Positions 1-15,425 of a stretch of 64,000 nucleotides of DNA are shown in pieces. Within the stretch, counting starts at the first letter, position 1; each line of letters starts with the position of its first letter. The stretch spans positions 3,354 through 67,353 of the forward strand of contig JBDRJV010000007.1 in assembly GCA_043814605.1 (NCBI GenBank), written 5' to 3'. The DNA comes from Candidatus Omnitrophota bacterium (GTDB lineage: Bacteria > Omnitrophota > Gorgyraeia > B26-G9). The notes below the pieces were generated by a model that was not told the DNA's origin, searched no databases, and saw only the letters and a list, made by a program, of their open reading frames with translations. Position numbers and translations under genes: made by a program.

Positions 1-124
1 AATATACGTAGGAAGTAAAAATAGTCCTTTGAAAAAAATAAGTATCACGATAATGGCAAACCATTCGAAAGGATGGGACAGGTAAGAATAAGCCTTCTCG
101 TAGAAATTTTCATAGATGTGAGCT

Positions 125-300
125 TATTAGTCGCAAGTTGCAAGTCACAAGTTACATGTAAAAGCAAAGACTAAAAGCTAATGATAAAGACTGCGGGAGC
201 AAAGCCACAAACCTAAACAGGTCGCAGGTCTCAAGTAGCAGGCTGCAAGTAAAAGCAATTAACTTGTAACTTGAAACTTGGAACTTGAAACTTGTATGGT
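125..300. repeat. Degenerate heptanucleotide-periodic intergenic repeat (GTNNCAA / CTTGNAA-type 7-mers, about 25 consecutive units)
   Basis: Read directly: gtcgcaa gttgcaa gtcacaa gttacat gtaaaag ... cttgtaa cttgaaa cttggaa cttgaaa cttgtat. The phase is maintained across about 175 nt. Confidence 0.7.
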
Positions 301-345
301 GGTTGGGTTGCCGAATGAAGCAGAGCTCATTTTGAGTCTGATAAA

Positions 346-382
346 AACCTGTTCTTAACTCTTTCGAGAACAGGTTTTTTTA
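346..382 (+). terminator. Rho-independent terminator-like hairpin (aacctgttc / gaacaggtt plus T7) 12 nt upstream of the next start codon
   Basis: 9-bp perfect stem, 10-nt loop and a TTTTTTT run, seen in the sequence. Confidence 0.45.
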
Positions 383-394
383 TTAGGCAAAAAA

Positions 395-2866
395 ATGAAA
401 AAATTAAAATATAAAAAATTAAATAAAAACTTAGCAACGCTAACAATTGCTTTATGTTGGATTTTGTTTTCTGCTTCATTAGCCTTGGCTGCTAATCAAA
501 TGAGTCAGGATAGTTATTCATTCAGCGTAATTGAGGATAATGCTGCTCCTTATCTAGATCATTGTTTGCCTACGGCTAACGCAACTGATGTTCCTCAGCA
601 CACAAATATTCAGTTTACTATTAAAGATGACGTTTCCGGCGTTGATAGTGGTTCAATTGATTTGACAGTTGAAGGGCAGTTGATTATTAATGATGGAGTC
701 GTTCAGTCCTTTGTTAATTCAATAGGCATAACAGTTGATTATGATGTTGAAATAATTGAGAAAAATTCTTGTGAATACGTAATTATGTATGATCCTGCAG
801 AGTATTTTGATTACAAACAAGTGGTAAATATAGCAGTTTCCGCTTCCGATTTAGAGAATAATACAGCAGCGGCAATAAATTATTCTTTTAAAACCCAGAA
901 ATTTGTTTATGGCGTGATAAGAAGTCTATCCAGGAGAAATATTTTAAGTGATGCGGCTGAAGGGGAACAGGATTATTCTGCTATTGCCACTTCCTCTGAT
1001 GGAAAAAAAGTTTATATTGTTTGGCAGGAATATTCTCAAGATGGGCAATGGAATATTTATTATATGCAATCGCTGGATTTTGGTCAGACCTATAGCAGTG
1101 CCCAACAAGTTCATCCAACTCAAATAGGAGTTGACCATTGTAATCCTCAAATCACAATTGATGCATTGGATAATGTTTATGTTGTCTGGCAGCAAAGAAA
1201 CCACAGTGCAGACTGGGACATTTATGTAGCAAGCTTAAATAATGGCGATATGGAATTCAGCGATAGTTATCTTGTTTATAATGATTCTGGGTTAACTGAC
1301 CAAACTAATCCCGTAATTTGTGTAAAAGATGCTTTGACTGATGATGGAGATAGTAATACGCAGGAACCTGCGACCCTGTATATCGGCTGGGTGGATGCAA
1401 ATGCCGGAATAAATAGCATAAAATTTATCCGGACAACTGCTAATTATCAGGATTATTGGTATGAATTTGTAAATAACCCAGTACGTGTTGATGATGATCG
1501 CTGGCCGCAACAGGCGGGTGGATTAGCTTTAGAAGTCGACGATGCGGGAAATATTATTATTGCTTGGTTAGGAATTAATGTTGACGGCACCAACAGTATT
1601 TATCTTGACCGGGCGCAAAAATCAATAATTGACAGCGGAGAAAATTTTGGTACAGATATTGAAGTTAGTGCAGCAACAGCAGCACAAATAGCTCCGCGAT
1701 TAGAAGTATCTAGTGATGGAAATAATGCCTATGTTTTATGGTTATCTGAAAATCAAACTCAATGCAATCTGAATTTTTCTGATTATTTGTACAGCCAGGG
1801 ACAAGGGATATTTAATTTAGACAGTAATCATCAAGTAAATGCCACCGCGATTACTCTGGATAGTGTGAGTGGATACGACTTAAAAGTTGATGAGCAATCA
1901 GATGTTTTTGTTGTTTGGCAGGAAATACAATCTGGTAACTATATTGTAAAGATTGCCGGTGCGAGTGAATCAGACTATAATTTCGAAGAATATGTTGATT
2001 TTGATACAAGCGGAACTCAAACCCATCCGGTGTTAGCTTTAGATAATAACGGTTATCATTATTATACCGCATGGTCAAATGATAGTGACGGGGTAAAAGA
2101 AATTAATTTATGCAGGAATACTTTTATTGAAACTGATTCTGTTAGTTCTCAAAAAATTGAAAATGATGTCGGCGGCAGTATTAATGTTACTAGCGGCGAT
2201 TTAAGCGGTACAAATGTTACGGTAATCCAAGATTCTGTAGAAACTCCTTTACAGGTCACAATTGCAGAAGTTGTTGCCGCTCCTTTAACAGCTGGGAATT
2301 TAGTTGTGGTTAGCAATGTTGTTGATTTTGGCCCGGGAGGGACTCAATTTGGTACTCCGGCTACAATAACAATCCCTTACACAGAGGTTCAATTAGATAG
2401 TGCGGGAATTACCAATAATGCTAGTTTAAAAATTTATTACTATAATTTAGCGGCTCAGGATTGGGAAGAAATGCCGGGATCAAGTATTGATTTAGCCGCG
2501 GAAAAAATATCTGTTTCTACAGATCACTTTTCTATGTATGCAATTTGCGGCGACCCGACAAGTACAGTAGATACAGGCAGTATTATTACCCCAGCAGTCT
2601 CAGCTTCATCAGGCGGTGGCGGCGGAGGAGGATGTTTTATTGCTACGGCAGCTTTTGGTACGAAGATGGCTAAAGAAGTCAAAATTCTCTGTGAATTTAG
2701 AGACCGGTATTTATTAACTAATTATTGGGGAACACAGTTTGTAAAGTTTTATTATAAGAACAGTCCGCCGATTGCAGATTATATCAGACAGAAAGAAGGT
2801 TTAAGAAGTATGATTAGATTCTGCTTAAAACCGTTGATTAGCCTGAGCAGAATGATATGTGATTAA
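395..2866 (+). CDS. Large secreted protein: signal peptide (ALA-AN cleavage site), six or more beta-propeller-like (Y/F)VVWQ repeats, poly-Gly linker and a Cys-containing C-terminal about 80-aa module (GGGGGGGCFIATAAFG...)
   Basis: 823-aa ORF. The N-terminus is basic then hydrophobic then AxA. Repeats recur: YIVWQEY..WNIYY, YVVWQQ..WDIYVA, YIGWVD, IIAWLG, YVLWLS, FVVWQE. It is the first gene of the exosortase locus. Confidence 0.6.
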   Translation: MKKLKYKKLNKNLATLTIALCWILFSASLALAANQMSQDSYSFSVIEDNAAPYLDHCLPTANATDVPQHTNIQFTIKDDVSGVDSGSIDLTVEGQLIINDGVVQSFVNSIGITVDYDVEIIEKNSCEYVIMYDPAEYFDYKQVVNIAVSASDLENNTAAAINYSFKTQKFVYGVIRSLSRRNILSDAAEGEQDYSAIATSSDGKKVYIVWQEYSQDGQWNIYYMQSLDFGQTYSSAQQVHPTQIGVDHCNPQITIDALDNVYVVWQQRNHSADWDIYVASLNNGDMEFSDSYLVYNDSGLTDQTNPVICVKDALTDDGDSNTQEPATLYIGWVDANAGINSIKFIRTTANYQDYWYEFVNNPVRVDDDRWPQQAGGLALEVDDAGNIIIAWLGINVDGTNSIYLDRAQKSIIDSGENFGTDIEVSAATAAQIAPRLEVSSDGNNAYVLWLSENQTQCNLNFSDYLYSQGQGIFNLDSNHQVNATAITLDSVSGYDLKVDEQSDVFVVWQEIQSGNYIVKIAGASESDYNFEEYVDFDTSGTQTHPVLALDNNGYHYYTAWSNDSDGVKEINLCRNTFIETDSVSSQKIENDVGGSINVTSGDLSGTNVTVIQDSVETPLQVTIAEVVAAPLTAGNLVVVSNVVDFGPGGTQFGTPATITIPYTEVQLDSAGITNNASLKIYYYNLAAQDWEEMPGSSIDLAAEKISVSTDHFSMYAICGDPTSTVDTGSIITPAVSASSGGGGGGGCFIATAAFGTKMAKEVKILCEFRDRYLLTNYWGTQFVKFYYKNSPPIADYIRQKEGLRSMIRFCLKPLISLSRMICD

Positions 2867-2869
2867 TAG

Positions 2870-3300
2870 TTATGAATGATGAGTTACGAGTTACGAGTGA
2901 CGAATTATAAGTGACGAGTTGCGAATTACGAATGACGAATTATGAATTAAAAGCGAATAGAAAAGCAGAGAAAAAAGAAAGGAGTTTTAGATAAACACAG
3001 ATCTAAAAGCTTAGATGAACAATGATAGGAAAGTAGATAGAAACCGAGAGACGAGGGACGAAGGAAGAGAGACGAGAAAATAGAAAATATATAAAGTTAC
3101 AAATTACAAGTGACGAATTACGAATTAAAAGCGAATAGAAAAAAACAAAAAAAGAAAAAACTAAAAAGCAAATAAGAGAGACGAAAAAGCGGATAAATTT
3201 TTTAAAAAATAGTTTTTTAAGCGAACGAAGAGAGCGTTCGTCCTTCATGCTAAAGAGTGGAACGAATGGTCGTCTTTCAGACATCGGTAAAAACAGGTAA
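2870..3300. repeat. Composite heptad-periodic intergenic repeat, copy 1 (a gagttac/gaattac tandem 7-mer run plus conserved blocks shared with 9040-9361)
   Basis: Read directly: gagttac gagttac gagtgac gaattat aagtgac gagttgc gaattac gaatgac gaattat, with the 7-nt phase kept for about 400 nt. Blocks 3082-3120 and 3205-3287 are near-identical to 9186-9225 and 9282-9361. Confidence 0.75.
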
Positions 3301-3550
3301 CGGGATTGCTGGAAACGGGTTAACTAGTTTAAAAAATAAGCTGACAAATAAGTGGGAGGCTTAAAAACGAGGGCTTGGTTTTTTAAATTCCAGGCTCTTG
3401 TTTTTTTTAAAAATCAGTGTTATAGTTAGAAAATAGCGAAGAGAAAAAATGCTGCAAGTTGCAGGACTCAGGCTACAAAAGAACGAAAAAACAATAACTG
3501 AAAAAAGTGAACAGCGTTTAGCGATTAGAAAAATCAAAAAATTAAAAATT

Positions 3551-4393
3551 ATGGATAAAAAATTAGTAGATTATTTAACAGTTTTGCTGATTGTATTGTT
3601 TTTAGCAATTATGTATTATCCTGCATTTATTTGGATGTGGGAAAGATGGCATGCTCCTGATACCAATTATAGCCATGGGATATTGATTCCTATTGTTTCT
3701 TTATTTTTGCTTTATTCAAGAAAAGAAAGACTTAAACAAATTCAAATTAAACCGGAAGGTTCAGGTATTATCTTCGTTTGTTTAGCAATTTTAGTGCATA
3801 TTACCGGGAACATGATAAATTTTCCCTTTGCCAGTGCTTTTTCGTTTATAATTATGTTAATCGGAATTGTGCTTTTTTTATTCGGAATAAAAATACTAAA
3901 AGCAGTTAAATTTGAAATATTGTTTTTATTATTCATGATTCCTGCACCGCTAATGTTAATTTCAAATTTAACAATAAGAATGAAATTATTTGCTGCGGGC
4001 ATTGCGACAAATTGTTTGAGTGTAATGGGATTAAAGGCAGTAAGAGAAGGCAGTATGATTCGTATGGGGCATTCATTTTTAGAAATTGAAGCGCCTTGCA
4101 GCGGGTTAAGGTCATTGATTTCCTTATTGGCTTTTGGCGCTGCCTTTGCCTATCTGACAAAACATAAATTTTGGAAAAAAGTAGTGCTTTTTGCAACAGC
4201 GCTACCCATTGCCCTAATTGCTAATGCCGGACGGATAGTCTTGCTAGGCTGGGTGAGTGAGGTATATGGTATGCAGGCAGCACAGGGATGGGTGCATGAT
4301 TTTTCTGGTTTTCTTTTATTCTTTTTTGCTGCTTGCGCGATGATTGCTGTAAATAGCATTTTAATAACACAAAAAATTGATGAACAAAAATAA
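3551..4393 (+). CDS. Exosortase (EpsH/XrtA-family transpeptidase)
   Basis: Polytopic membrane protein with exosortase signature motifs: YSHG (N-terminal), the catalytic Cys in EIEAPCSGLRSLISL, and NAGRIVLLG (Arg motif). I chose the MDKK start at 3551 because the upstream in-frame stretch from 3449 lies inside repeat sequence. Confidence 0.8.
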   Translation: MDKKLVDYLTVLLIVLFLAIMYYPAFIWMWERWHAPDTNYSHGILIPIVSLFLLYSRKERLKQIQIKPEGSGIIFVCLAILVHITGNMINFPFASAFSFIIMLIGIVLFLFGIKILKAVKFEILFLLFMIPAPLMLISNLTIRMKLFAAGIATNCLSVMGLKAVREGSMIRMGHSFLEIEAPCSGLRSLISLLAFGAAFAYLTKHKFWKKVVLFATALPIALIANAGRIVLLGWVSEVYGMQAAQGWVHDFSGFLLFFFAACAMIAVNSILITQKIDEQK

Positions 4394-5015
4394 TTTAGAA
4401 AAAGTAGTTTTAATCTGCTTATTACTAACCGGTATGGTTTTAAGTTTTGTTTTTAAACCAATTAAGTTAGACAATAGTAACGATAAGCGAATAATACAAT
4501 TTCCTCAGACTATCGGAGAATATACTTCAACCGATGTAGTGCTCGGAAAGGAAGTCTATGATATTTTAGAAACTAAAAATGTTATCATGCGTTACTATAA
4601 AAAAAATGCAGAACCGCCGATCTTGTTTTATTTGATTTTCTCCCAGCAAACTCATAAAACATCAGATCCTCCGGAAAATTGTCTTACCGGGGACGGAATC
4701 TTGATTTTACAAAAATCAAAAACTTTTCTTAAGCTTAGCAATAATGTAAAGTTAAGTGTAAATAAATTAATTACCGGTAGTCAGGATAAAAAACAGGTTT
4801 ATTTGTACTGGTTTTTAGCAGGAAATCAATTTGTGGATAGTTATATTACCCAACGGGTTAAATTAATTGCTTCTTATCTAATGCGCAAGCCTCTTAGTGG
4901 CGGACAAATCCGGATTTCTACTGATATAATTGAAGCAAATGAGACAGAAGCCTTGCAAAGGATTAATGCGTTTATTTCAGAATGCTTACCATTATTGGTT
5001 GGACTTCTTTCCTAA
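4377..5015 (+). CDS. EpsI-family exosortase-associated protein
   Basis: About 210 aa with an N-terminal TM helix. It lies immediately after, and overlaps, the exosortase gene, which is the canonical EpsH-EpsI arrangement. Confidence 0.55.
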   Translation: MMNKNNLEKVVLICLLLTGMVLSFVFKPIKLDNSNDKRIIQFPQTIGEYTSTDVVLGKEVYDILETKNVIMRYYKKNAEPPILFYLIFSQQTHKTSDPPENCLTGDGILILQKSKTFLKLSNNVKLSVNKLITGSQDKKQVYLYWFLAGNQFVDSYITQRVKLIASYLMRKPLSGGQIRISTDIIEANETEALQRINAFISECLPLLVGLLS

Positions 5016-5324
5016 AATTTAAAAAATCTTAAAAAAATACAATTACACTTGCAATATAATTTTTATGTGGTATACTTGCTTAACGTTTTTATTTAACTTG
5101 CTAAAAAAATAGTAAGTTAGGTTAATTATGGCAAAATAATAGTGTTGATTTAAACTATGAGTGTGTTGATTAAATTCAACAGTGAATCAGGTAAATTTCA
5201 TTAATAGAATTCAGAGTTATAAGTAAAAATCAACTGTATCTTTTATAAAGATTTTAATTAATTTGGTTGAAGTAAGTTATAGTTTCACTAAAAAATGCTT
5301 TAAATTATATAAATTATTAATGTT

Positions 5325-5341
5325 TGGCACAGAATATGCTT
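5325..5341 (+). promoter_or_regulatory. Sigma-54 (RpoN)-type promoter: TGGCAC-N5-ATGCT with the -24 GG and -12 GC spaced correctly
   Basis: The sequence tgGCacagaatatGCtt lies about 100 nt upstream of the sugar transferase start. A sigma-54-dependent activator is encoded 5 kb downstream. Confidence 0.45.
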
Positions 5342-5436
5342 AAGTATAACAGTCATACAAGAAATTTCTTAACTTAGAATTCAGAAAGCAAAAATGATGT
5401 TTTTGAGCAGTGCCTCAAAAAGGGAAAATAAAAAAA

Positions 5437-6222
5437 ATGAAAAGATTTAATGATTTTGCAAAAATAAATATTAGGATTTTAACTATAGCGGTAATAATGT
5501 TTTCGCTATTAGTAATTCCCAAAGTAATGGCAATGTCTTTGGAAGAGGTAATTGATCTTAAGCCATACGGCTTTTTTGCTTTTTTATTCGGTATAGGAAG
5601 CAGTATGCTGCGTTTTGCACAAACCAAATTTAAAAAAATTAAACGGGTTTTTGATATTATTATTGCTCTAGCGGCCCTAATAGTAACTTCACCTTTACTA
5701 TTAGTTTCTTCCCTATTAATTAAGTGGTTTTCACCAGAAGGCCAAATTTTTTATACACAAAAAAGAGTGGGAAAAGATGGAAAAGTGTTTGAAATTTATA
5801 AATTGCGTTCAATGAAACCAGATGCAGAAAAAACTACCGGAGCAGTATGGGCTAATGAAGATAATGATCCCCGAGTGATTCCGGTGATTGGAAATTTTTT
5901 AAGACAATCGCATATAGATGAAATTCCGCAGTTTTTTAATGTATTAATCGGGGATATGAGTGTTGTCGGCCCCAGGCCAGAGAGACCAGAAATCGTAGCA
6001 GATCTAAAGCATAAAATTAGGGAATATGAAAAAAGACTGTATGTGCGTCCAGGGATTACGGGTTTAGCGCAGATAAGAAACCGTTATGATAAAACATTAA
6101 GTGATGTTAAGAAAAAAGTAAAACTTGATCTAATGTATATTCGTAAAATGTGCTTGTTTGGAGAAATAAGCATTCTTTTGAGAACATTTGTTGTAATTTT
6201 TAAGGGAAAAGTTATTAGTTAA
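5437..6222 (+). CDS. Undecaprenyl-phosphate sugar phosphotransferase (bacterial sugar transferase family, exosortase-associated type)
   Basis: Conserved C-terminal catalytic region: KLRSM, DEIPQFFNVLIGDMSVVGPRPERP, GITGLAQ. The in-frame GTG at 5410 is an alternative start. Confidence 0.8.
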   Translation: MKRFNDFAKINIRILTIAVIMFSLLVIPKVMAMSLEEVIDLKPYGFFAFLFGIGSSMLRFAQTKFKKIKRVFDIIIALAALIVTSPLLLVSSLLIKWFSPEGQIFYTQKRVGKDGKVFEIYKLRSMKPDAEKTTGAVWANEDNDPRVIPVIGNFLRQSHIDEIPQFFNVLIGDMSVVGPRPERPEIVADLKHKIREYEKRLYVRPGITGLAQIRNRYDKTLSDVKKKVKLDLMYIRKMCLFGEISILLRTFVVIFKGKVIS

Positions 6223-6241
6223 AAAAGAAAGGTGTAGAGTT

Positions 6242-6931
6242 ATGGGAAAAGTTTTTGGGAAGTTAAGTATTTGTGTAGTAAGTTGTGTAGTGATTATGTC
6301 TCCAGTATTTAGTTATGCGGCATTTACTGAGCCGATTTTAAATAATTCAGGGGCGCAGTCATTAACAGGTGCAGGTGGAATTTTAGATACATTATACGGC
6401 TTAGAAAATTTAAGGCGTTTTGATGATGATCTAGATCAACTATGGTCACATAAAACAGAAAATTCTAGCGTGGTTACAGCAGAAGCAAAGTTTGCATCTT
6501 ATTCTCAAACATTTGGCTATATATACGGAGAAGAAGGCAATAGCTTTACAGAGCTTTTTACGGTTGGTTCTGGTAATTTGGGTTATGGCGTATCTAATAC
6601 AGCTATGTTTTCCGTAGGTGATTCTGGGGATCCTTTCCGCTTTGGTAATGATCCTTCTGGTCAATATGGTCCGGGATTATTTAGTTCTGTAGAAACCGAC
6701 AATCCAGATCAAGCAGATCATATGCTTACCTGGTATATTATTGGTGGTGAGAAAAAGGGTAATTTTGTGGTTGCCTGGGAAGATTTACTTAATTTAGGAG
6801 ACCGTGATTATAATGATTTAGTTGTTGAAGTATCTGGTGTACGGCCAAGTGCAGTGCCTGAGCCAGCAACAATATTGCTTTTAGGGCCGGCTTTATTAGG
6901 GTTATTAGGGTTAAAAAGGAAAAAAAGTTAA
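6242..6931 (+). CDS. PEP-CTERM sorting-domain protein with a DUF4114-like motif (predicted exosortase substrate)
   Basis: N-terminal signal peptide. The C-terminus VPEPATILLLGPALLGLLGLKRKKS is a textbook PEP motif followed by a TM helix and a basic tail. The protein also contains WEDLLNLGDRDYNDLVV. Confidence 0.85.
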   Translation: MGKVFGKLSICVVSCVVIMSPVFSYAAFTEPILNNSGAQSLTGAGGILDTLYGLENLRRFDDDLDQLWSHKTENSSVVTAEAKFASYSQTFGYIYGEEGNSFTELFTVGSGNLGYGVSNTAMFSVGDSGDPFRFGNDPSGQYGPGLFSSVETDNPDQADHMLTWYIIGGEKKGNFVVAWEDLLNLGDRDYNDLVVEVSGVRPSAVPEPATILLLGPALLGLLGLKRKKS

Positions 6932-6969
6932 TTATTGACATTATTATAAGTAAGTAGTAATATATATTT

Positions 6970-7020
6970 CACGCTCAGGGATGAGATATTCTGGGAAAAA
7001 TCCCTGAGCGTGTTTTTTTA
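6970..7020 (+). terminator. Rho-independent terminator (cacgctcaggga ... tccctgagcgtg plus T7)
   Basis: 12-bp perfect stem followed by a TTTTTTT run, directly after the PEP-CTERM gene. Confidence 0.65.
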
Positions 7021-7065
7021 TGTTTTAGCATATAGAACTGATTGAAAATACAAAGGTTAGGGGGC

Positions 7066-7094
7066 TTGACAAATAGGTTTACATAAGGTATACT
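7066..7094 (+). promoter_or_regulatory. Sigma-70-like promoter: TTGACA, 17-nt spacer, TATACT
   Basis: Consensus -35 hexamer with exact 17-nt spacing to a 5/6 match to the -10 hexamer. It lies about 160 nt upstream of the membrane-protein gene. Confidence 0.35.
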
Positions 7095-7252
7095 TCTGCA
7101 GCCTATTTTTTTTGGTCTTAATGTTGATAAAAATCAACACTGTTGAAAACGTTGAATCTTTTAAAAAGTTATTGATAAATATTAATTTTGTTTTTTATAA
7201 GTAGTATTTTTAAGACACAAATTCTTAAAAGATTTAATGGGGGTTAGTTTGT

Positions 7253-8125
7253 ATGTATACAAGGAAAATATCTGGTTTAAGGATTATTCAGAGATCATGG
7301 CTAGGATGTTTTAATCTGATATTTGGGAAACCCGTAATTGTCTATCCTTTTTTATTTATAAGTATTTTAGAATTAATAAGCATTTTAACTTTATTCCTAT
7401 TCATCCAGCCGCCTTTAGTTAAATATATTAATCCGATTGTGTTACGTTTCTGGGGAGAGAAATTTTTACATTATCCTTTAAATCTGGTTTTATTATCCCG
7501 TCTTTTTTCCTATCTTCAATTAGCAGTTTTAGTCATATTTGGCACTTTTGCTACGGGGATGACGATAAATATGTCTGCGGATTACTTCCTCAATAACCAG
7601 TTTTCCTTTAAAAAAGCGGTATTAGCCACGATTACTAAATATGTGAGTTTATTAATAATCTCATTATTAATATTCTTCCTTTTACATCAGAGCCAAGTAT
7701 TAGAAAATAGAGTACTGCTTAAAATATTAAATAGGGGAAGGTCTTTTTTAGGAGTGGGAGTAGAAGATTGGAAAACGCTTTTCCTTGTATTTTCTGTGGT
7801 TGTTTCGGGTATTATCCAAACAATATTTATATTTATACAGCCCGCAATCATGATTGAAAATAAGAACTTTTTTTTGGCTATTTTTAGGAATTTAAGTTTT
7901 GTAATGAGAAACTTATTTTCCGCTTTAATATTAACAATTATCCCTTTAACTGTATTTATTCCGGTTGTGTTGCTAAAAAGTAATATGATTGTTCTGATGA
8001 ATAGGCTTATTCCGGAAATAGTTTTTATCATACTTATTGCGGGGGTTTTTATTTCGTTTTTTATAAATTTAGTGATTACAATTTCTATAACTAAAGCATA
8101 TTTAGTAATAAAGAATGATAAATGA
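7253..8125 (+). CDS. Polytopic integral membrane protein, function unknown
   Basis: 290-aa ORF with eight or more hydrophobic helices. It sits in the exosortase locus. Confidence 0.45.
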   Translation: MYTRKISGLRIIQRSWLGCFNLIFGKPVIVYPFLFISILELISILTLFLFIQPPLVKYINPIVLRFWGEKFLHYPLNLVLLSRLFSYLQLAVLVIFGTFATGMTINMSADYFLNNQFSFKKAVLATITKYVSLLIISLLIFFLLHQSQVLENRVLLKILNRGRSFLGVGVEDWKTLFLVFSVVVSGIIQTIFIFIQPAIMIENKNFFLAIFRNLSFVMRNLFSALILTIIPLTVFIPVVLLKSNMIVLMNRLIPEIVFIILIAGVFISFFINLVITISITKAYLVIKNDK

Positions 8126-8141
8126 CAAAACTCGGAGCGAT

Positions 8142-9035
8142 ATGAAAAATTTAATACGCAGATGTGCTTTATCCGTAGTTTTAGCTTTAAGCCTGGGAGT
8201 TTTAAATTCTGGATGCATCCAGCAATATACTGTTGAACGAATGCTCTGGCAGGCAAATAAAGCGGCGGAACCGATATTTATAAATCAAGGTTCTGTCCCA
8301 AGTTATGAATTTAACAGGGTTATCGCATTATTTGATAAAGTTATTGAAAAAGTACCAGGATCAAGTTATGCATTAAAATCTAAACTGAGGAAAGCTTCAC
8401 TTTTTATTTCACAAAATTCGTATGAAAAAGCCTTTAAAATTTATGATGATGTAGTTACGGAATATAAAGAACAAAAAGAAATTTGCGCCAGAGTTATTTT
8501 TTTAAAAGGCCAAGCCTGTGAAAAACAAGGCCTGTGGGATAAGGCATTAGAATTTTTTAATCAGATATTATTAGAATATGAAAAAACACAAAAAAGCTTG
8601 GCGGTTCCTTTATATATCGCGAGGTATTATAGTGAAAACGGGCAGGATAGCCAAGCGCAGCAAGCGTATTTAGGAGCGGTTATGTATTTTCAGTCAATTG
8701 CAGATAAATACCCAAATACTAAAGGCGCGGTATTATGCGAAAATTTGATTGTGCGGACTTATTTGGAAATGGGAACCTGGGGAAAAGCTGCTGAATATAT
8801 AGAGCAATTAGATGGAAAATATAAATTGGGGCCAGATACTCTTCTGGTGCTTGCGAGAATTTATGATAATAAGGTAAAGGATCCAGTCCGCGCTAAGCAA
8901 ATTTATCAGCGAATTTTAGAAAATTATCCTAAACATAAAATTATTGAAGCGGTGAAAAAGGATATGAAAAAACTTATTACCAGTGAGCCGGTGGCCAATG
9001 AGCCGGTTGACAGTGAGCCGGTAAATAGTCAATAG
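8142..9035 (+). CDS. TPR-repeat lipoprotein
   Basis: Lipobox LNSGC after a signal peptide. TPR-like helical repeats follow, and the C-terminus carries an EPV repeat tail. Confidence 0.5.
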   Translation: MKNLIRRCALSVVLALSLGVLNSGCIQQYTVERMLWQANKAAEPIFINQGSVPSYEFNRVIALFDKVIEKVPGSSYALKSKLRKASLFISQNSYEKAFKIYDDVVTEYKEQKEICARVIFLKGQACEKQGLWDKALEFFNQILLEYEKTQKSLAVPLYIARYYSENGQDSQAQQAYLGAVMYFQSIADKYPNTKGAVLCENLIVRTYLEMGTWGKAAEYIEQLDGKYKLGPDTLLVLARIYDNKVKDPVRAKQIYQRILENYPKHKIIEAVKKDMKKLITSEPVANEPVDSEPVNSQ

Positions 9036-9039
9036 TCGA

Positions 9040-9361
9040 TGGTCAATGGGTTGAAGTAAAAAGGATAAAGGATAAAAATTGAATGCTGCAAGCTGCAGGG
9101 AAAAATCAATGATGAGTTACGAGTAAACTGAAGGACGAGGGACGACCGCTGCGCTAGGACGAGAGACGAAAAAACAGAAAATATATAAAGTTACAAATTA
9201 CAAGTGACGAGTTATGAGTGAAAAGCAGATAGAAACCGAGAGATGAAGGACGAGGGAAGAAAAAGTTGATAAATTTTACAAGAAATAGTTTTTAAAGCGA
9301 ATGAAGAGAGCGTTTGTCCTTCGTCCTAAAGAGCGGAGCGAATGGTCATCCTTCGGACTGC
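9040..9361. repeat. Composite heptad-periodic intergenic repeat, copy 2 (shares blocks with 2870-3300 and the aaaggataaaggataaa block with 19070)
   Basis: Near-identical blocks gaaaatatataaagttacaaattacaagtgacga and aatagtttttaaagcgaa.gaagagagcgtt.gtccttc...gagcgaatggtc. Two compensatory changes relative to copy 1 preserve the small hairpin. Confidence 0.7.
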
Positions 9362-9386
9362 GGTTAACACTAGTAACAGAGGATAT

Positions 9387-10517
9387 ATGCAGGAATTTTT
9401 AGAAATAATACTGAATCAATGTTTAAATATTTTAGAATCAGATAGCGGTTCGATTTTATTATTGGATAAAAATAATCAGGATATTGTTGTGCGCGTTGCC
9501 CGGGGCAAACATAAAACTTCGATCTTAGGCAAAAAAAACCGTCTGGGAGAAGGTATTTCCGGCATGGTTGCACAACAAAAAAAACCGCTTTTAATTGAAG
9601 ACTTACGTAAAGATGAAGCCATTAAAAATATGTGCCGGGAACAAAATTATCGCACGCATTCGTTTCTTTCGGTGCCGCTTGTTTTTTCCGGCCGCTTGTT
9701 AGGAGTCTTAAATATCACGGAAAAAACAAAAGGCGAACCTTTTTCAATTAAAGAATTATCATATGTCAGCGCCATCGCCAGTTGCGCCGCAGGGACAATT
9801 GACCGGATGTTTTATAACGAGCATTTAGAAAGGCAGTTGGAATCATTTAAAAATTCTACAGCGGTTAGTAAATTTACATCCGCGATTGCCCATGAATTAA
9901 ATAATCCGCTGGATGGAGTATTGCGTTATTTACGCCTGGCAATAATGCAAGTGCCGGAACAAAATGTGCTAAAAGAATATTTATTGGAAATCCTCTCAGG
10001 GGTAAAACGCATGTCGGAAATAATTAAATCTATGCTGGAATTTTCTTTTGCCGGCGATCGAAACCATAGTCCTATTGCACGGGATAAAGTTGATGTGAAT
10101 GAGATTATTCAAAAATCAATAACTTTTTATAAACAAGAGGCTTTTTTTAAAAATATTGAAATTAAAGCAGAATTAGCTCCGGCATTGCCAAAAATTAAAG
10201 ATTGCGGCTTAATTCAAGTATTTAATAATTTTATTAAAAATGCAATTGAAGCTATTCTTGAACAGGGGCAATTATCTATAAAAAGTTATCAGGAAAATGA
10301 TAATATTTTTGTGGATTTTATTGATACAGGTGTGGGTTTAAATAAAGACCTAAAGGATAAAATTTTTGAGCCGTTTTTTACAACAAAAACTAAAGGTAAA
10401 GGATTAGGATTAGCAATTGTGAAAGAAGTTGTTAGCTGTTATGAGGGAGAAGTGAAAGTGGAAAGTTTAATTCCTAAAGGAACAAAATTTACTTTAATGA
10501 TTCCAATACGGAGGTAA
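9387..10517 (+). CDS. Cytoplasmic sensor histidine kinase (GAF - HisKA - HATPase)
   Basis: H-box IAHELNNPL and G2-box GLGLAIVKEVV. The N-terminal region is GAF-like. The RBS agagga sits 6 nt upstream of the ATG. Confidence 0.8.
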   Translation: MQEFLEIILNQCLNILESDSGSILLLDKNNQDIVVRVARGKHKTSILGKKNRLGEGISGMVAQQKKPLLIEDLRKDEAIKNMCREQNYRTHSFLSVPLVFSGRLLGVLNITEKTKGEPFSIKELSYVSAIASCAAGTIDRMFYNEHLERQLESFKNSTAVSKFTSAIAHELNNPLDGVLRYLRLAIMQVPEQNVLKEYLLEILSGVKRMSEIIKSMLEFSFAGDRNHSPIARDKVDVNEIIQKSITFYKQEAFFKNIEIKAELAPALPKIKDCGLIQVFNNFIKNAIEAILEQGQLSIKSYQENDNIFVDFIDTGVGLNKDLKDKIFEPFFTTKTKGKGLGLAIVKEVVSCYEGEVKVESLIPKGTKFTLMIPIRR

Positions 10518-10522
10518 AAATT

Positions 10523-11938
10523 ATGAAAAGGCATATATTGATTACGGATGATGAGCCGCTAACCAGGAAGTCTCTAAAAGAGATTCTCAGATATGAAGGA
10601 TACAATGTTACCACGGCTGAAGACGGGGCAAAAGCTTGGGAAATTATGCAGCGTTTACCCGTAGATGTGATTATGGCTGACATGAAAATGCCTAAAATCG
10701 GCGGTATGGATTTACTGAAAAAGGTGCGGGAAAATTATCCCCAAACTCAGGTTGTGCTGATGAGTGCTTACGGAAATATTGAAAATGCAGTGGAAGCAAT
10801 GCGTTTAGGGGCTTTTGATTATGTAACTAAGCCCATCGAGGATGATCAGCTAAGATTATTAATGAAAAAAATTGATACACGCAGTAACTTAAGAACTGCA
10901 GAGGTTAGTCCTGACTCAGAAATCCAAGCTCCCAAAGAGATACGGTATAAGTTTTATACAGTTATGGGTAAAGATGAAAAAATGCAGAGAATTTATACAA
11001 TGATTGAAGCAATTGCTGATACTCCGTCAACGGTTTTGATTTGCGGTGAAAGCGGTACGGGCAAAAGAATGATTGCACAAGCAATCCATCAGGCAGATCA
11101 TGCTCGGGTGAATCAGCCGTTTATTGAAATCAGCTGTGGGGCACTTCCGGAAACCTTGCTGGAGAGTGAACTTTTTGGTCATGTCAAAGGATCATTCACG
11201 GGTGCGATTAAAGATCGGGCCGGAAGGTTTGAATTAGCTAATGGCGGGACAATATTACTGGATGAAATCGATACCTGTTCGCCTAGTTTACAGGTCAAGT
11301 TATTAAGAATTTTAGAAGAAGGGGAATACGAACGTGTCGGAGATATAAAAACACTTAAATCTGATGTCCGGGTGATTGCGGCGACGAATCAAAGTTTAGA
11401 AGAACTGGTGCAAAGACGCACATTTAGAGGTGATTTATTTTGGCGCTTAAATGTGATTAATATTAATTTACCGGCTTTAAGAGACCGTCTCGGTGATATT
11501 CCGCTCTTGATCGAACATTTTTTAGAAAAATATAATCGGATGCGCCAGAAATCCGGAAAAGGAATAGTGATCGAAAGAATTTCGGATTCGGCAATGAAGT
11601 TCATGTTGGATTACCCTTGGCCGGGGAATATCCGGGAATTAGAAAATACTGTAGAAAGAGCATGTATTTTAGTAAAAGGAGCAGTGCTGGAACCGCGAGA
11701 CTTACCGGATTCGATAACTCATTATAAAGCAAAAAATAATAATAGTTTTCCCACAAAAGAGGATTTTTCATTGAAAAATGCTTTAAAAAATCCCGAACGG
11801 GACATTGTGATTGATGCTCTTAAGCACAATAATTGGAATTGCACAAGAGCCGCAGCATTTTTAGGTATTAATCGAACAACTTTATATAACAAAATGAAGC
11901 TTTACAAAATAAAAAGAACAAACAGTGTAAGATTTTAG
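10523..11938 (+). CDS. Sigma-54-dependent response regulator (NtrC family; PrsR-like by context)
   Basis: REC domain (ITDDEP...D54). AAA+ sigma-54 interaction motifs GESGTGKR, GAFTGA and ESELFGH. C-terminal Fis-type HTH. Confidence 0.85.
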   Translation: MKRHILITDDEPLTRKSLKEILRYEGYNVTTAEDGAKAWEIMQRLPVDVIMADMKMPKIGGMDLLKKVRENYPQTQVVLMSAYGNIENAVEAMRLGAFDYVTKPIEDDQLRLLMKKIDTRSNLRTAEVSPDSEIQAPKEIRYKFYTVMGKDEKMQRIYTMIEAIADTPSTVLICGESGTGKRMIAQAIHQADHARVNQPFIEISCGALPETLLESELFGHVKGSFTGAIKDRAGRFELANGGTILLDEIDTCSPSLQVKLLRILEEGEYERVGDIKTLKSDVRVIAATNQSLEELVQRRTFRGDLFWRLNVININLPALRDRLGDIPLLIEHFLEKYNRMRQKSGKGIVIERISDSAMKFMLDYPWPGNIRELENTVERACILVKGAVLEPRDLPDSITHYKAKNNNSFPTKEDFSLKNALKNPERDIVIDALKHNNWNCTRAAAFLGINRTTLYNKMKLYKIKRTNSVRF

Positions 11939-11969
11939 TGATGGCCTAAGTTTTTGGATGATAAGATAA

Positions 11970-13055
11970 ATGATGGAACTAGGTTTTCTCGACCTAATAA
12001 ATAGTAATAGATGGCAGGTAATTCAAGATTACTTTTCCCAGGTAATTAATGCCGGAGTGCGTGTAGTTGATTGTAACGGAGAGCCGCTCACTTCGTTAAG
12101 TAAACCGTGTAGGTATTGCTATGAATTAATATCCAGCTCACCGCAGGCACTGAGTGAATGCAACCAATGTTCCTTACTGTCTCCTGTACCCCAAATAAAA
12201 GATGACCTATTTTTTAAAAAACAGAATTTTCTTGATCAAGAGGGAAATATTTATTATGATCAGTGTTCTTTTTTTGTTAACCGAATTTATATTCCTATAA
12301 AACTGCTGGAAGGTAATATCTGTGGATATATTATAATTGGGCCTGTGGTTCTAGGTAAAAGAAAAGCTTATACCGATTATTTTAATTTGAGTAAAAACTT
12401 AGAGCTGGATATTAATGAGGTTATTGATTACATTGAAACTATCCGCGTCTTTTCTTTTAACAGTATTGAATCTATAGTGAAATTATTTCAGGAAGTGGTC
12501 AATTGTATGGTGCGTTCTGGATATGAACGAATTAAGAATCGAACAAAAAATGCGGTATTTTTAACGGAGGATCAAAATAAAACTAACTTTTACAGGGGGA
12601 AAATGATTCAAGCCTTGTTTGAAACTGCGACAGAAGGGGTAAATGCCGAACGGGCATCGGTCATGCTTTTTGATGCAGATTCAGAAACTCTTTCTATAAA
12701 AGTGGCAAAAGGGATTCCGGATAAAATTTCTCGTAACGTAAAGATTAGAAAAGGAGAAGGATTAGCCGGGTGGGTAGCCGCAGAAAACCAAATTTTATTT
12801 ATTGATCATAATTTTAAAAATCCTCGATTAATAAGCCGTTTGCGCCAGCCGCAATTAAAAGCTTCTTTAATGGTGCCAATCCGGAGTGCAAAAAAGGTCT
12901 TAGGTGTATTAAGCTTAAGTACGCAAGCGGAAAATAATAAATTTACATCTGAAAATATAAATTCTATTATTCAATTGACTAAAATGGTAGATAGCGCCTT
13001 AGTCGGACTGAGTGCAGATAATCGGATCCAGGATTTACAGGATGAGGAGAGTTAA
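11970..13055 (+). CDS. PocR-like sensory domain plus GAF domain protein
   Basis: N-terminal Cys-containing PocR-like region (VVDCNGEPL...CRYC...CNQC). C-terminal GAF region (GEGLAGWVAAENQILFID). Confidence 0.45.
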   Translation: MMELGFLDLINSNRWQVIQDYFSQVINAGVRVVDCNGEPLTSLSKPCRYCYELISSSPQALSECNQCSLLSPVPQIKDDLFFKKQNFLDQEGNIYYDQCSFFVNRIYIPIKLLEGNICGYIIIGPVVLGKRKAYTDYFNLSKNLELDINEVIDYIETIRVFSFNSIESIVKLFQEVVNCMVRSGYERIKNRTKNAVFLTEDQNKTNFYRGKMIQALFETATEGVNAERASVMLFDADSETLSIKVAKGIPDKISRNVKIRKGEGLAGWVAAENQILFIDHNFKNPRLISRLRQPQLKASLMVPIRSAKKVLGVLSLSTQAENNKFTSENINSIIQLTKMVDSALVGLSADNRIQDLQDEES

Positions 13056-13059
13056 AATT

Positions 13060-13240
13060 AGTGGCTCATAGCTCATGGCTGATAGCGAATAAAAATTATG
13101 AGTGATGAGTTATAAGTGAAAAGCGAAAAAGCAGCGAATAGCGTTTAGCGATTAGGAAATACAAAGACAAAAGCAAAAAATAAAATAAAAACTAGAAAAC
13201 AGGTAACTGGCCAACAGGATAACTGGCTAACTGTATAAGA
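13060..13240. repeat. Heptad-periodic intergenic repeat between convergent genes
   Basis: Read directly: gtggctc atagctc atggctg atagcga ... ttatgag tgatgag ttataag tgaaaag cgaaaaa gcagcga atagcgt ttagcga. The gcgtttagcgattag block is also present at 3515. Confidence 0.65.
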
Positions 13241-13244
13241 GAGA

Positions 13245-15425
13245 CTAAAATTCATCAACTTGTTTTTTAATGTTTAAAGCAATTTCTTTCCCCACGTTTG
13301 GAACCTCTTGTAGTTTCTCTACCGAGACTGTTTTAAGATTAGAAATAGTTTTGTATCCATTATTGAATAAATTACGCGCACGTATGCGTCCAATTCCTTT
13401 TAAATTGACTAATTCCAGCAGTTCTGATTTTACCCCGTACTTAAGTTGAGTCCTCAGGTTAATCAGGGGTTTAGTGCCGGGAATTTTAAACAGTTTAGCC
13501 AACTCAATAGTTGAATATAATAACCATTCGGCAGTATCCATAAAACGGTAGATATCACCAGGGCCTGTGCCAAAAAAATCACAGATTGATTCTTCTTTTT
13601 CTTCATTAATCCATTGGGAAATCATCCAGACTGTTTTGATACGGGCTAAATGCGAATTAAAATCTTCACTTAATGGCAAAGGCAGCTGGAATTCATCTTT
13701 ATGCGAATCAATATAGGGGATAATTTTTTCTAGATCAGATTTATTTACACTTAAGGTGAACATGTCCGGGACACAGCAGATCAGATAAAGTAAAGTTAAG
13801 GGGGTGAACATTCTTTCCGTTCCCTTAAAACAATCTCTGATTATAACCGCTGTGATCGGGTCAATATATAAACGGCTGATTCGGCTGCCAAATGCAGTAG
13901 GTAATAATTTATCTTTTTTTTGTTGGATCATTTCCTGACGCGTTAAAAACGCAATAATTTCTAATACTATTTCCGTCAAGTCATAATATTTTTGTTCGTA
14001 ATAAAAAAAAGTTTTGTGAATAAAGTCAAAGGCAGTATTTATGCTGGAAATAAAACCTGTAACAATTGAAGCGAGAAGATGTACCCGTAGTGCGCTTTCA
14101 TTGCCCAGATGAGAATGAATGGGTTCAGAATCCGCAAATATGAAATCGTTAAATAATTCACTTTGCTCCTGTTTATTACGAGCATAAAGAATTGATTCTC
14201 CAAATTTATCATATTTAGGCCGTCCGGCGCGTCCGCTCATTTGTTTATATTCCATAACACTTATAGGCTTCATGCCTAGGCCGGAGGCATAACGGTACAA
14301 ACCGCGGATTATTGTCCGGCGGGAGGGAAGATTAACGCCGACAGCGAGTGTGGGAGTGGCGCAAATAACCTTGATAATATTTTTTCTAAAATTTTCTTCA
14401 ATTAATTTACGATGATTATGATGTAATCCAGCATGATGAAAAGCCACACCGCATTTTGTATATTCACTTAATTGTTTAGAAACCTTCGTAACTTCTGCAG
14501 AGCTTTTGGTCAATTCCTGGGCTAAAGAAGCTAATTGGGTACGGTCCTTAGGTGTTAAAAAAGCGGATAAGTCTTTAGAAATACGCCGAGCCTCAGCCTG
14601 GGCTGACCTGCGGGTATTAACAAAAACTAAGGTCTGGCCTTTCTCATAAACACAATCAATAGCCAAAGCACTGATATCATCATTAACTCTTTTTAAGTGT
14701 TGTGCATCAAGTTCCTTTGATGTACCATCCGCAAATTTAATTTTGCCTTGACAATAAACCCCTTCTTTTAAAACTACCGGCCGCCAGCTGCTGATGACTA
14801 AATTTGCATTTAACCAATTGGCGATTTGGTCAGCATTAGCAATTGTCGCGCTTAAACCGACTATTTTTAAATTGTCATTTAAACTGATTAATCTGGTTAA
14901 AACTGTTTCTAAAGTAGGCCCGCGGTGAGGATCACCAATATAGTGTATTTCATCAGAGATAACACAAGCTAATTTTGATCCCAGCCAAGATGAATTTTGA
15001 CGCAGCAGGGAATCAACTTTTTCCGCAGTAGCGATTAAAATATCATTTTTTGCTAAGGATGGATTGGAATGGTCAAAATCACTGGTAGCAATACCAATTT
15101 TTATGCCGATTTTTTCGTAACGCTCTTTAAATTCATCATATTTTTCCGAAGCTAAAGCACGTAAGGGTACAATATAAAGACAGTTGCCTTTTTTTGTTAA
15201 AATAGTTTCTAACATGACTAATTCAGCCAGTAAGGTTTTTCCGGAAGCTGTGGGCATAGCTAAAATCATGTTTTTATCAGTAAGCAGCCCTTGTTCAATT
15301 GCTTTTGCTTGTGGGGGATAAAGATCTGTGATTCCGTTATTTGTCAAAATTTCTTGTAAATTTTTCGGTAGTGTTTTGAAAATTGCTTTTGTGTTCATAA
15401 CGTTAGCTAATTGTACCAGTTCCAA
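13245..15425 (-). CDS. Hel308/Ski2-like superfamily-2 DNA helicase
   Basis: Motif I MPTASGKT, motif II DEIH, motif VI (xRxGR) MSGRAGRP (translated). A winged-helix/ratchet region and a C-terminal helix-hairpin-helix (LKGIGRIRARNL) follow. Confidence 0.8.
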   Translation of the reverse strand: MELVQLANVMNTKAIFKTLPKNLQEILTNNGITDLYPPQAKAIEQGLLTDKNMILAMPTASGKTLLAELVMLETILTKKGNCLYIVPLRALASEKYDEFKERYEKIGIKIGIATSDFDHSNPSLAKNDILIATAEKVDSLLRQNSSWLGSKLACVISDEIHYIGDPHRGPTLETVLTRLISLNDNLKIVGLSATIANADQIANWLNANLVISSWRPVVLKEGVYCQGKIKFADGTSKELDAQHLKRVNDDISALAIDCVYEKGQTLVFVNTRRSAQAEARRISKDLSAFLTPKDRTQLASLAQELTKSSAEVTKVSKQLSEYTKCGVAFHHAGLHHNHRKLIEENFRKNIIKVICATPTLAVGVNLPSRRTIIRGLYRYASGLGMKPISVMEYKQMSGRAGRPKYDKFGESILYARNKQEQSELFNDFIFADSEPIHSHLGNESALRVHLLASIVTGFISSINTAFDFIHKTFFYYEQKYYDLTEIVLEIIAFLTRQEMIQQKKDKLLPTAFGSRISRLYIDPITAVIIRDCFKGTERMFTPLTLLYLICCVPDMFTLSVNKSDLEKIIPYIDSHKDEFQLPLPLSEDFNSHLARIKTVWMISQWINEEKEESICDFFGTGPGDIYRFMDTAEWLLYSTIELAKLFKIPGTKPLINLRTQLKYGVKSELLELVNLKGIGRIRARNLFNNGYKTISNLKTVSVEKLQEVPNVGKEIALNIKKQVDEF

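Follow-up and report, generated by a model that had tools for sequence, protein, structure and literature searches.

We suggest that the 64 kb stretch of Candidatus Omnitrophota DNA analyzed here (the window) carries a regulated exosortase system, and that the region around its exosortase gene makes up the first half of a cluster of ~10 kb, spanning positions 3551-13055, that is kept in dozens of Candidatus Omnitrophota contigs. Our reading is of a widespread Omnitrophota PEP-CTERM/exosortase cluster organized in three transcription units, one of them a sigma-54-dependent operon, and we put the probability of this reading as a whole at roughly 0.78. The first unit would consist of the exosortase, a membrane Cys/Arg/His transpeptidase, together with its EpsI-family partner. 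The second, dependent on sigma-54, would begin with a short polyprenyl-phosphate sugar-phosphate transferase (PGT) and continue into a variable cassette of PEP-CTERM cargo genes, represented here by one DUF4114 protein and closed by a terminator. The third, read from a sigma-70-type promoter, would encode a multi-helix membrane protein (TM290), a lipoprotein with tetratricopeptide repeats (TPR), a soluble histidine kinase with a GAF domain, an enhancer-binding regulator of the NtrC type and a PocR-GAF protein. The Omnitrophota are a phylum of mostly uncultured, frequently ultra-small bacteria, and we found nothing relevant in the literature on exosortases or PEP-CTERM proteins among them.

This proposal is carried by the identities of the genes, by their synteny, by the conservation of a promoter and a palindrome upstream of the PGT, and by the co-variation of that promoter with the regulator. 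The comparison set comprised 2 genome and 80 metagenome loci encoding relatives of the exosortase at 39-58% identity (~750 kb of sequence in total, with 1,358 open reading frames), and synteny was assessed by tblastn of the window proteins against these fetched loci, which are designated below by L numbers. Many independent metagenome contigs repeat the same order, running from exosortase and EpsI through the PGT and a variable PEP-CTERM stretch to TM290, the TPR protein, the GAF kinase, the NtrC-type regulator and the PocR-GAF protein. All open reading frames named in a first-pass annotation of this DNA were recovered, on the + strand, and the genes past 13055 in the window have housekeeping functions unrelated to the cluster. 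In a large protein database the exosortase has 413 matches at E<=1e-20, and those that are named come nearly all from Omnitrophota or Omnitrophica.

The exosortase passes both the Exosortase_EpsH and the generic exosortase models, and the YSHG, CSGLRS and NxxRI motifs ascribed to it at the outset are all present. Among 29 homologs, residues Y40, H42, G43, C183, S184, G185, N225, R228, H249 and D250 are invariant and R187 and S188 nearly so; judged by this alignment, the enzyme has the conserved Cys/Arg/His of the proposed transpeptidase site (C183, R228, H249). The codon of the catalytic Cys183 lies at 4097-4099, and the start annotated by NCBI, at 3449, gives a protein of 314 amino acids. None of the NCBIfam subtype models accepts the enzyme, and the generic TIGR02602 alone does: it scores 174.8 bits against XrtA (TIGR03109), below the cutoff of 208, and reaches 199.9 bits against XrtD (TIGR04152; cutoff 400) and 196.6 bits against XrtW (NF038142; cutoff 425), in both cases over the N-terminal half of the model only. 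The name given by NCBI to this protein and its close relatives, just “exosortase/archaeosortase family protein”, agrees with the failure of every subtype model to reach its cutoff. The EpsI-family protein, with a single N-terminal transmembrane (TM) segment, is encoded by a gene that overlaps the exosortase stop codon and that comes next after the exosortase in nearly all related loci, and its assignment, too, was upheld. Upstream of the exosortase gene is a purine-rich intergenic region of 580 bp in which a heptamer is repeated in tandem (2868-2960; TTACGAA-like, ~9 copies at 2884-2949), and a second 64-nucleotide (nt) copy of the end of this tandem array, 83% identical, is found 178 nt downstream of it (3083-3131).

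The first-pass annotation had described a single PEP-CTERM/DUF4114 neighbour, and had taken it to suggest that this is a specialised exosortase with exactly one substrate, a one-to-one pair distinct from the bulk systems associated with exopolysaccharide (EPS). The observation itself stands, since a regular expression and a hidden Markov model (HMM) built from 90 related tails detect exactly one PEP-CTERM tail in the window. This cargo protein has an N-terminal hydrophobic segment at residues 10-28 and ends in VPEPATILLLGPALLGLLGLKRKKS, with the PEP-CTERM match extending to the final residues; against the flocculation protein PepA (NF033554) it scores 25.6 bits (cutoff 80), in its C-terminal half only (residues 106-229, including the tail). 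A dedicated pair would be in keeping with the position of this lone gene, which adjoins the exosortase, with the rejection of the enzyme by every subtype model, XrtA included, and with the related loci, where PEP-CTERM genes within +/-10 kb are almost all in or beside the cluster. The orthologous clusters speak otherwise. Between the PGT and TM290 they hold anything from no PEP-CTERM gene (L080) through one (the window and several others) to as many as 7-8 (L052), and among 81 proteins encoded in these cassettes the Pfam PEP-CTERM domain is found in 77, whereas DUF4114 occurs in only 6; the others have VWA, ice-binding, NIDO, C-type lectin, cohesin or CBM domains, or no known domain. DUF4114 as the core cargo is ruled out by the same count.

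Because the orthologous slot holds 0-8 PEP-CTERM genes of unrelated families, a single cargo does not define the system; the slot is a rapidly changing cargo cassette, of which the window shows the low end rather than the sign of a dedicated enzyme. And because both the number and the domains of the cassette proteins vary, the exosortase serves a changing set of cargo. The cargo is also co-transcribed with a priming sugar transferase, as in EPS-linked systems, and we regard a one-to-one pairing of this enzyme with its DUF4114 neighbour as unlikely. What survives of the initial contrast between a specialised system and the bulk XrtA type is its weak sense, in that the exosortase belongs to an unclassified clade and is not plain XrtA. 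The dedicated part is not supported, and the link to glycans persists because the priming sugar transferase shares the sigma-54 operon, as in XrtA/EpsB2 systems.

That the PGT and the cargo form one operon follows from the gap of 20 nt between the stop codon of the one and the start of the other, and from the perfect hairpin terminator after the cargo. The PGT itself was correctly recognised at the outset as a bacterial sugar transferase of the Bac_transf family; its earliest possible start is a GTG at 5410, and it falls short of EPS_sugtrans (TIGR03025; 266 bits, cutoff 295.6, matching in the catalytic domain only), a model that some of its relatives pass, for instance that of L017 at 314. 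A sigma-54 motif, TTGGCACAGAATATGCTT, lies at 5324-5341, and the promoter proper, TGGCACAGAATATGC at 5325-5339, is intergenic, upstream of the gene, has its GG and GC dinucleotides 10 nt apart and fits 9 of 10 consensus positions. Taken alone the motif is not significant, as at least one TGGCAC-N6-TGC match arises in 23% of shuffles and looser matches occur at chance level, and its significance derives instead from conservation in related loci. Of 42 related loci, 41 have a -24/-12 element upstream of the PGT that agrees with the consensus at 8 or more of its 10 positions (9 or more in most loci) and typically reads TTGGCAC-G-N4-TTGCT. Sites with 9 or more agreeing positions have a background of 0.05 per kb per strand across all 750 kb of the loci, and about half of these are the PGT promoter sites themselves; most of the other well-placed ones immediately precede PEP-CTERM genes, as in L002, L011 and L061. 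On the strength of this conservation we judge the sigma-54 promoter, which had been proposed from the window alone, to be real and to drive the PGT-cargo operon. An Rfam scan of the intergenic regions found no riboswitch next to the exosortase or the PGT.

Upstream of this promoter lies a palindrome that we predict to be the activator site. The window contains two perfect copies of TGTTGA-N6-TCAACA, where 0.15 would be expected. With up to two mismatches and the N6 spacing retained, the palindrome is found in 31 of 39 loci, against about three expected, and those at no fixed position; the best site falls at -146 to -180 in 30 of the 31, and at -59 in L082. In many loci there are, in addition, 10-bp-phased TTGTCATAG repeats around -100 to -130; neither the window nor its closest relatives carry them. 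These repeats, TTGTC(A/C)TAG, occur as 2-4 direct copies with 10-11 bp spacing between the palindrome and the sigma-54 promoter (L008, L011, L030, L031, L037, L041, L046, L052, L058, L066 and L075). The second perfect palindrome of the window, just downstream of the sigma-70-type promoter, is shared by only 2 of 25 loci, and a role for it as an autoregulatory site would be speculative.

As had been claimed, a GAF kinase and an NtrC-type activator lie downstream, and both prove to be syntenic parts of the cluster that parallel PrsK and PrsR. The regulator has an intact Walker A motif (GESGTGK), the sigma-54 contact loop GSFTGA and no hydrophobic segment. Eleven non-redundant loci extend 3 kb or more past the TPR gene; in 8 of these the regulator follows that gene, and 5 have a full kinase. 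The PocR-GAF protein is syntenic in 12 distinct loci (13 rows, of which L010 duplicates the L009 locus) and may be the more constant sensory partner. In the loci with enough sequence, promoter and activator are both present in 8 of 8 cases and both absent in 3 of 3. The latter, L003, L053 and L060, are sequenced past the end of the cluster and show neither a nearby regulator nor any sigma-54 site; L003 carries a consensus sigma-70 promoter, TTGACA-17-TATACT, in its place. From these patterns the neighbouring regulator is most likely the activator of the sigma-54 promoter, its binding being inferred. That the kinase, activator and PocR-GAF protein are instead mere neighbours belonging to another regulon, with a different activator serving the promoter, would accommodate the relatives, such as L002, that have the promoter and no activator within 10 kb, but it is very improbable given the placement of the activator after the TPR gene in 8 of 11 loci, its joint presence and absence with the promoter, and the fixed, enhancer-like distance of the palindrome from that promoter.

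We posit that the GAF and PocR domains would sense a cytoplasmic signal, leading to phosphorylation of the regulator, which would bind TGTTGA-N6-TCAACA ~150 bp upstream of the -24/-12 element and activate sigma-54 RNA polymerase, so that glycan priming and cargo would be produced together. The cargo would be exported by Sec and then retained in the membrane through its C-terminal helix, and the exosortase would cut it at VPEP and pass it on for attachment to the surface or matrix. For its phosphorelay, DNA binding, cleavage step and cargo destination, this scheme is modeled on the proteobacterial precedent of PrsK/PrsR/PrsT and RpoN. Several points weigh against the scheme. No gene for a polysaccharide polymerase or for polysaccharide export is found in the cluster, and a regular-expression search for an RpoN box found none in the window or the fetched loci. 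The regulators fail the PrsK, PrsR and PrsT cutoffs, and the analogy rests on architecture and context. In four loci (L015, L019, L066 and L075) that have the activator and the PocR-GAF protein, the interval from the TPR gene to the activator lacks a complete GAF kinase. The identification of the palindrome-binding protein as the NtrC-type regulator is a prediction, and the TTGTC(A/C)TAG repeats may be sites for a second factor or the true activator sites, so that the activator site could differ from the one proposed here. Finally, we know of no experiment on any Omnitrophota exosortase.

The proteobacterial systems offer a close analogy. Sigma-54 sites with an upstream activator motif were predicted before proteobacterial PEP-CTERM genes, as were the correlated proteins PrsK (a transmembrane kinase), PrsR (NtrC-like) and PrsT (a TPR lipoprotein) (Haft 2006, PMC1569441), and in Aquincola pepA transcription is RpoN1-dependent and floc formation requires prsT, epsB2 and prsK (PMC9850573). 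Like the XrtA/Prs system, the Omnitrophota cluster combines an exosortase and EpsI with a Bac_transf priming transferase, a TPR lipoprotein, a GAF histidine kinase and an NtrC-type activator, and has its PEP-CTERM cargo preceded by a -24/-12 promoter that an activator site accompanies further upstream. By analogy, the cluster works like the XrtA/Prs system and is no member of those families, with the TPR protein as its PrsT-like component. The kinase, correctly described from the start as soluble and GAF-based, has no TM segment, unlike the multi-TM PrsK; the TPR protein is 306 amino acids long, whereas the PrsT model has 899 positions; and the promoter precedes a PGT-plus-cargo operon, whereas those of XrtA/Prs systems stand at single cargo genes.

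This might still be an ordinary XrtA/PrsKRT system, functionally undistinguished, whose low scores reflect nothing other than lineage divergence. XrtA is among the best-scoring models, and the parts list (exosortase, EpsI, Bac_transf, TPR, kinase and sigma-54 regulator) is that of the XrtA system. However, the shortfalls extend to every equivalog model of the XrtA system: 174.8 bits against a cutoff of 208 for XrtA, 234.6 against 393 for EpsB_2 (TIGR03013; catalytic domain only), 92.6 against 300 for PrsK (TIGR02916; cytoplasmic part only, profile 321-679), 368.6 against 502.6 for PrsR (TIGR02915; the REC-AAA+-Fis layout is shared with PrsR, and the AtoC and NtrC models give higher scores, again below cutoff) and 28 against 312 for PrsT (TIGR02917). 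The membrane domain of PrsK is absent, and the PGT is short, with a signal peptide and an embedded sorting-signal-like module, compared with the ~450 amino acids of EpsB2. TM290 and the PocR-GAF protein are extra conserved genes with no counterpart in the XrtA system; TM290 has no Pfam or NCBIfam match, and its AlphaFold2 model (pLDDT 88.7) finds no significant match in the PDB (best E-value 0.04). Moreover, the best partial matches of the exosortase are to XrtD and XrtW, at half of their cutoffs. Both of these are exosortase-EpsI fusions, whereas the window has two genes, the separate EpsI matching the C-terminal half of the XrtD model at 75.6 bits; and the cargo signal of XrtD is VPLPA, while the window cargo has the classical VPEP. 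We therefore hold an undistinguished XrtA system to be very unlikely, and return to the view of an Omnitrophota cluster that is analogous to XrtA/Prs and separate from it.

The PGT has an architecture of its own. Small monotopic PGTs of the PglC type and EpsB2, which is also tied to exosortase systems, share a Bac_transf domain preceded by a membrane-associated helix. The Omnitrophota enzymes differ in what precedes the catalytic domain: a signal peptide, then a linker in the periplasm, then a PEP-TM-basic module, which in the window reads LKPYG. Of 40 complete orthologs, 35 start with a signal peptide (…AWA), followed by a linker of 30-50 residues, the PEP-TM-basic segment and then the Bac_transf domain, and, except for its position, the segment, (S/K)(R/H)APEP(S/T)T-LALFGSGLLGMI-…-R/K, is a PEP-CTERM signal. 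TIGR02595 recognises it in 3 of 6 tested proteins (17.4, 17.1 and 16.6 bits, cutoff 16), the other three being just under the cutoff, and precomputed Pfam matches place PF07589 before PF02397 in seven PGT homologs in the database. Applied to the 1,358 open reading frames of the loci, the cargo-tail HMM gives 98 C-terminal and 35 internal matches, and all 35 internal ones are in the PGT. The best 120 PGT homologs in the database divide into 75 of the PEP type, 30 of an L-x-P-Y-G type and 15 near variants. The window PGT belongs to the L-x-P-Y-G sub-clade: its signal peptide, ending …VMA/MS, is followed by a linker of ~10 residues and then by LKPYG-FFAFLFGIGSSML-RF…KFKK, a module that the cargo-tail HMM does not match. 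In L080 (11759-13753) a PGT with a full PEP-type internal signal has TM290 directly next to it and no PEP-CTERM cargo in the slot, and is the only nearby protein with a sorting signal.

We found no description of this architecture, or of PEP-CTERM signals with phosphoglycosyl transferases, in the searchable literature. PEP-CTERM domains with long tails have been considered probably non-functional (Haft 2006, PMC1569441), a view against which the conservation of the PGT signal argues. The predicted topology fits a helix running from outside to inside, which would leave the basic cluster on the cytoplasmic side together with the catalytic domain. We raise the hypothesis that the signal functions in docking to the exosortase or in cleavage by it, and that the exosortase may thus have the PGT, too, as a client or docking partner, a possibility that we hold to be somewhat doubtful. 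In the sub-clade of the window, L-x-P-Y-G has taken the place of PEP and the linker is down to ~10 residues, a pattern that would fit docking without cleavage.

Table 1. Features of the Omnitrophota exosortase cluster; positions are counted from the first nucleotide of the window.
Feature	Position	Strand	Evidence
Exosortase	3551..4393	+	PF09721 (Exosortase_EpsH) 222.4 bits vs cutoff 25.7; TIGR02602 171.8 vs 105.55
EpsI-family partner	4377..5015	+	TIGR02914 60.2 vs 42.8; DUF3485 83.7 bits
Palindrome TGTTGATTAAATTCAACA, predicted activator site of the NtrC-type regulator	5164..5181	.	161 bp upstream of the -24 element
Sigma-54 -24/-12 promoter TGGCAC-AGAAT-ATGC	5325..5339	+	~98 nt before the ATG at 5437
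Short PGT (Bac_transf)	5437..6222	+	PF02397 207 bits; 261 amino acids (NCBI)
Degenerate sorting-signal-like module in the PGT	5557..5637	+	Residues 41-67: LKPYG, hydrophobic helix, basic residues
DUF4114/PEP-CTERM cargo	6242..6931	+	DUF4114 42.8 vs 27; PF07589 22.0 vs 20.7; TIGR02595 23.2 vs 16
Intrinsic terminator of the PGT-cargo operon	6970..7020	+	Perfect 13 bp stem (6970-6982/7000-7012), then T run
Sigma-70-type promoter TTGACA-17-TATACT	7066..7094	+	11/12 consensus positions; best promoter-like site in 1-13400
Second perfect palindrome TGTTGATAAAAATCAACA	7122..7139	.	Shortly after the sigma-70 promoter and before the genes for TM290, TPR protein, kinase and regulator
TM290, multi-helix membrane protein	7253..8125	+	290 amino acids; syntenic in ~25 loci
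TPR protein, lipoprotein-like N-terminal signal (…LNSGC)	8115..9035	+	TPR Pfam matches; 306 amino acids; syntenic
Soluble GAF-HisKA-HATPase histidine kinase	9342..10517	+	Pfam domains; H-box HELNNP; no TM segment
NtrC-type sigma-54 response regulator, REC-AAA+-Fis helix-turn-helix	10523..11938	+	Sigma54_activat 218.8 bits
Soluble PocR-GAF sensor, last conserved cluster gene	11970..13055	+	PocR 81.9, GAF 49.6 bits; syntenic in 12 loci

On either side of the cluster the window holds further features. Directly upstream of the exosortase, 395-2866 encodes a secreted protein of 823 amino acids whose C-terminal end has a Gly run, the sequence CFIATAAFG and a CFI-box-CTERM domain of 69 residues (NF041770; 98.3 bits vs 40), another C-terminal sorting-type domain. 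This neighbourhood is common only to the closest relatives, L004 and L005 (48-51% identity), and we found nothing relevant on the CFI-box in the literature. Immediately upstream of the CFI-box-CTERM gene, 153-315 matches the cyclic di-GMP (c-di-GMP)-I riboswitch aptamer at 33 bits (gathering score 35, E=0.0027), next to a weaker tandem copy at 45-135, and the same position is occupied in the orthologous loci (L005, 2276-2428, 33.2 bits; L004, 4946-5017, 35.3 bits with the GGC variant model). Recurrence in three loci suggests a real c-di-GMP riboswitch whose score is lowered by an insertion and which would control the CFI-box-CTERM surface protein. Beyond the cluster, on the - strand, 13245-15425 encodes a helicase of 726 amino acids with DEAD and Helicase_C domains, the Pfam domain “Archaeal helicase, domain 4” and a C-terminal HhH; its domain architecture is Hel308/Ski2-like, more typical of archaea, and is found here in a bacterial metagenome-assembled genome.

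This would be the first exosortase system described for the Omnitrophota, and it corrects the idea that a lone adjacent cargo identifies a dedicated system. It also presents a compact circuit that is legible from sequence, with its sensors, sigma-54 activator, likely DNA site and promoter, and that could be rebuilt in a model host. To our knowledge, the acceptor to which exosortases transfer their cargo has been unknown since 2006, and the sorting signal of the PGT, degenerate in this genome, is the feature of most specialist interest because it bears on that acceptor. If the PGT is indeed a client or docking partner of the exosortase, polyprenyl-linked glycan priming would be physically coupled to protein sorting, and a lipid-linked glycan would be indicated as the long-sought acceptor in exosortase transpeptidation. 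The presence of a cargo-type signal on the PGT in most relatives makes this link between glycan synthesis and sorting directly testable.

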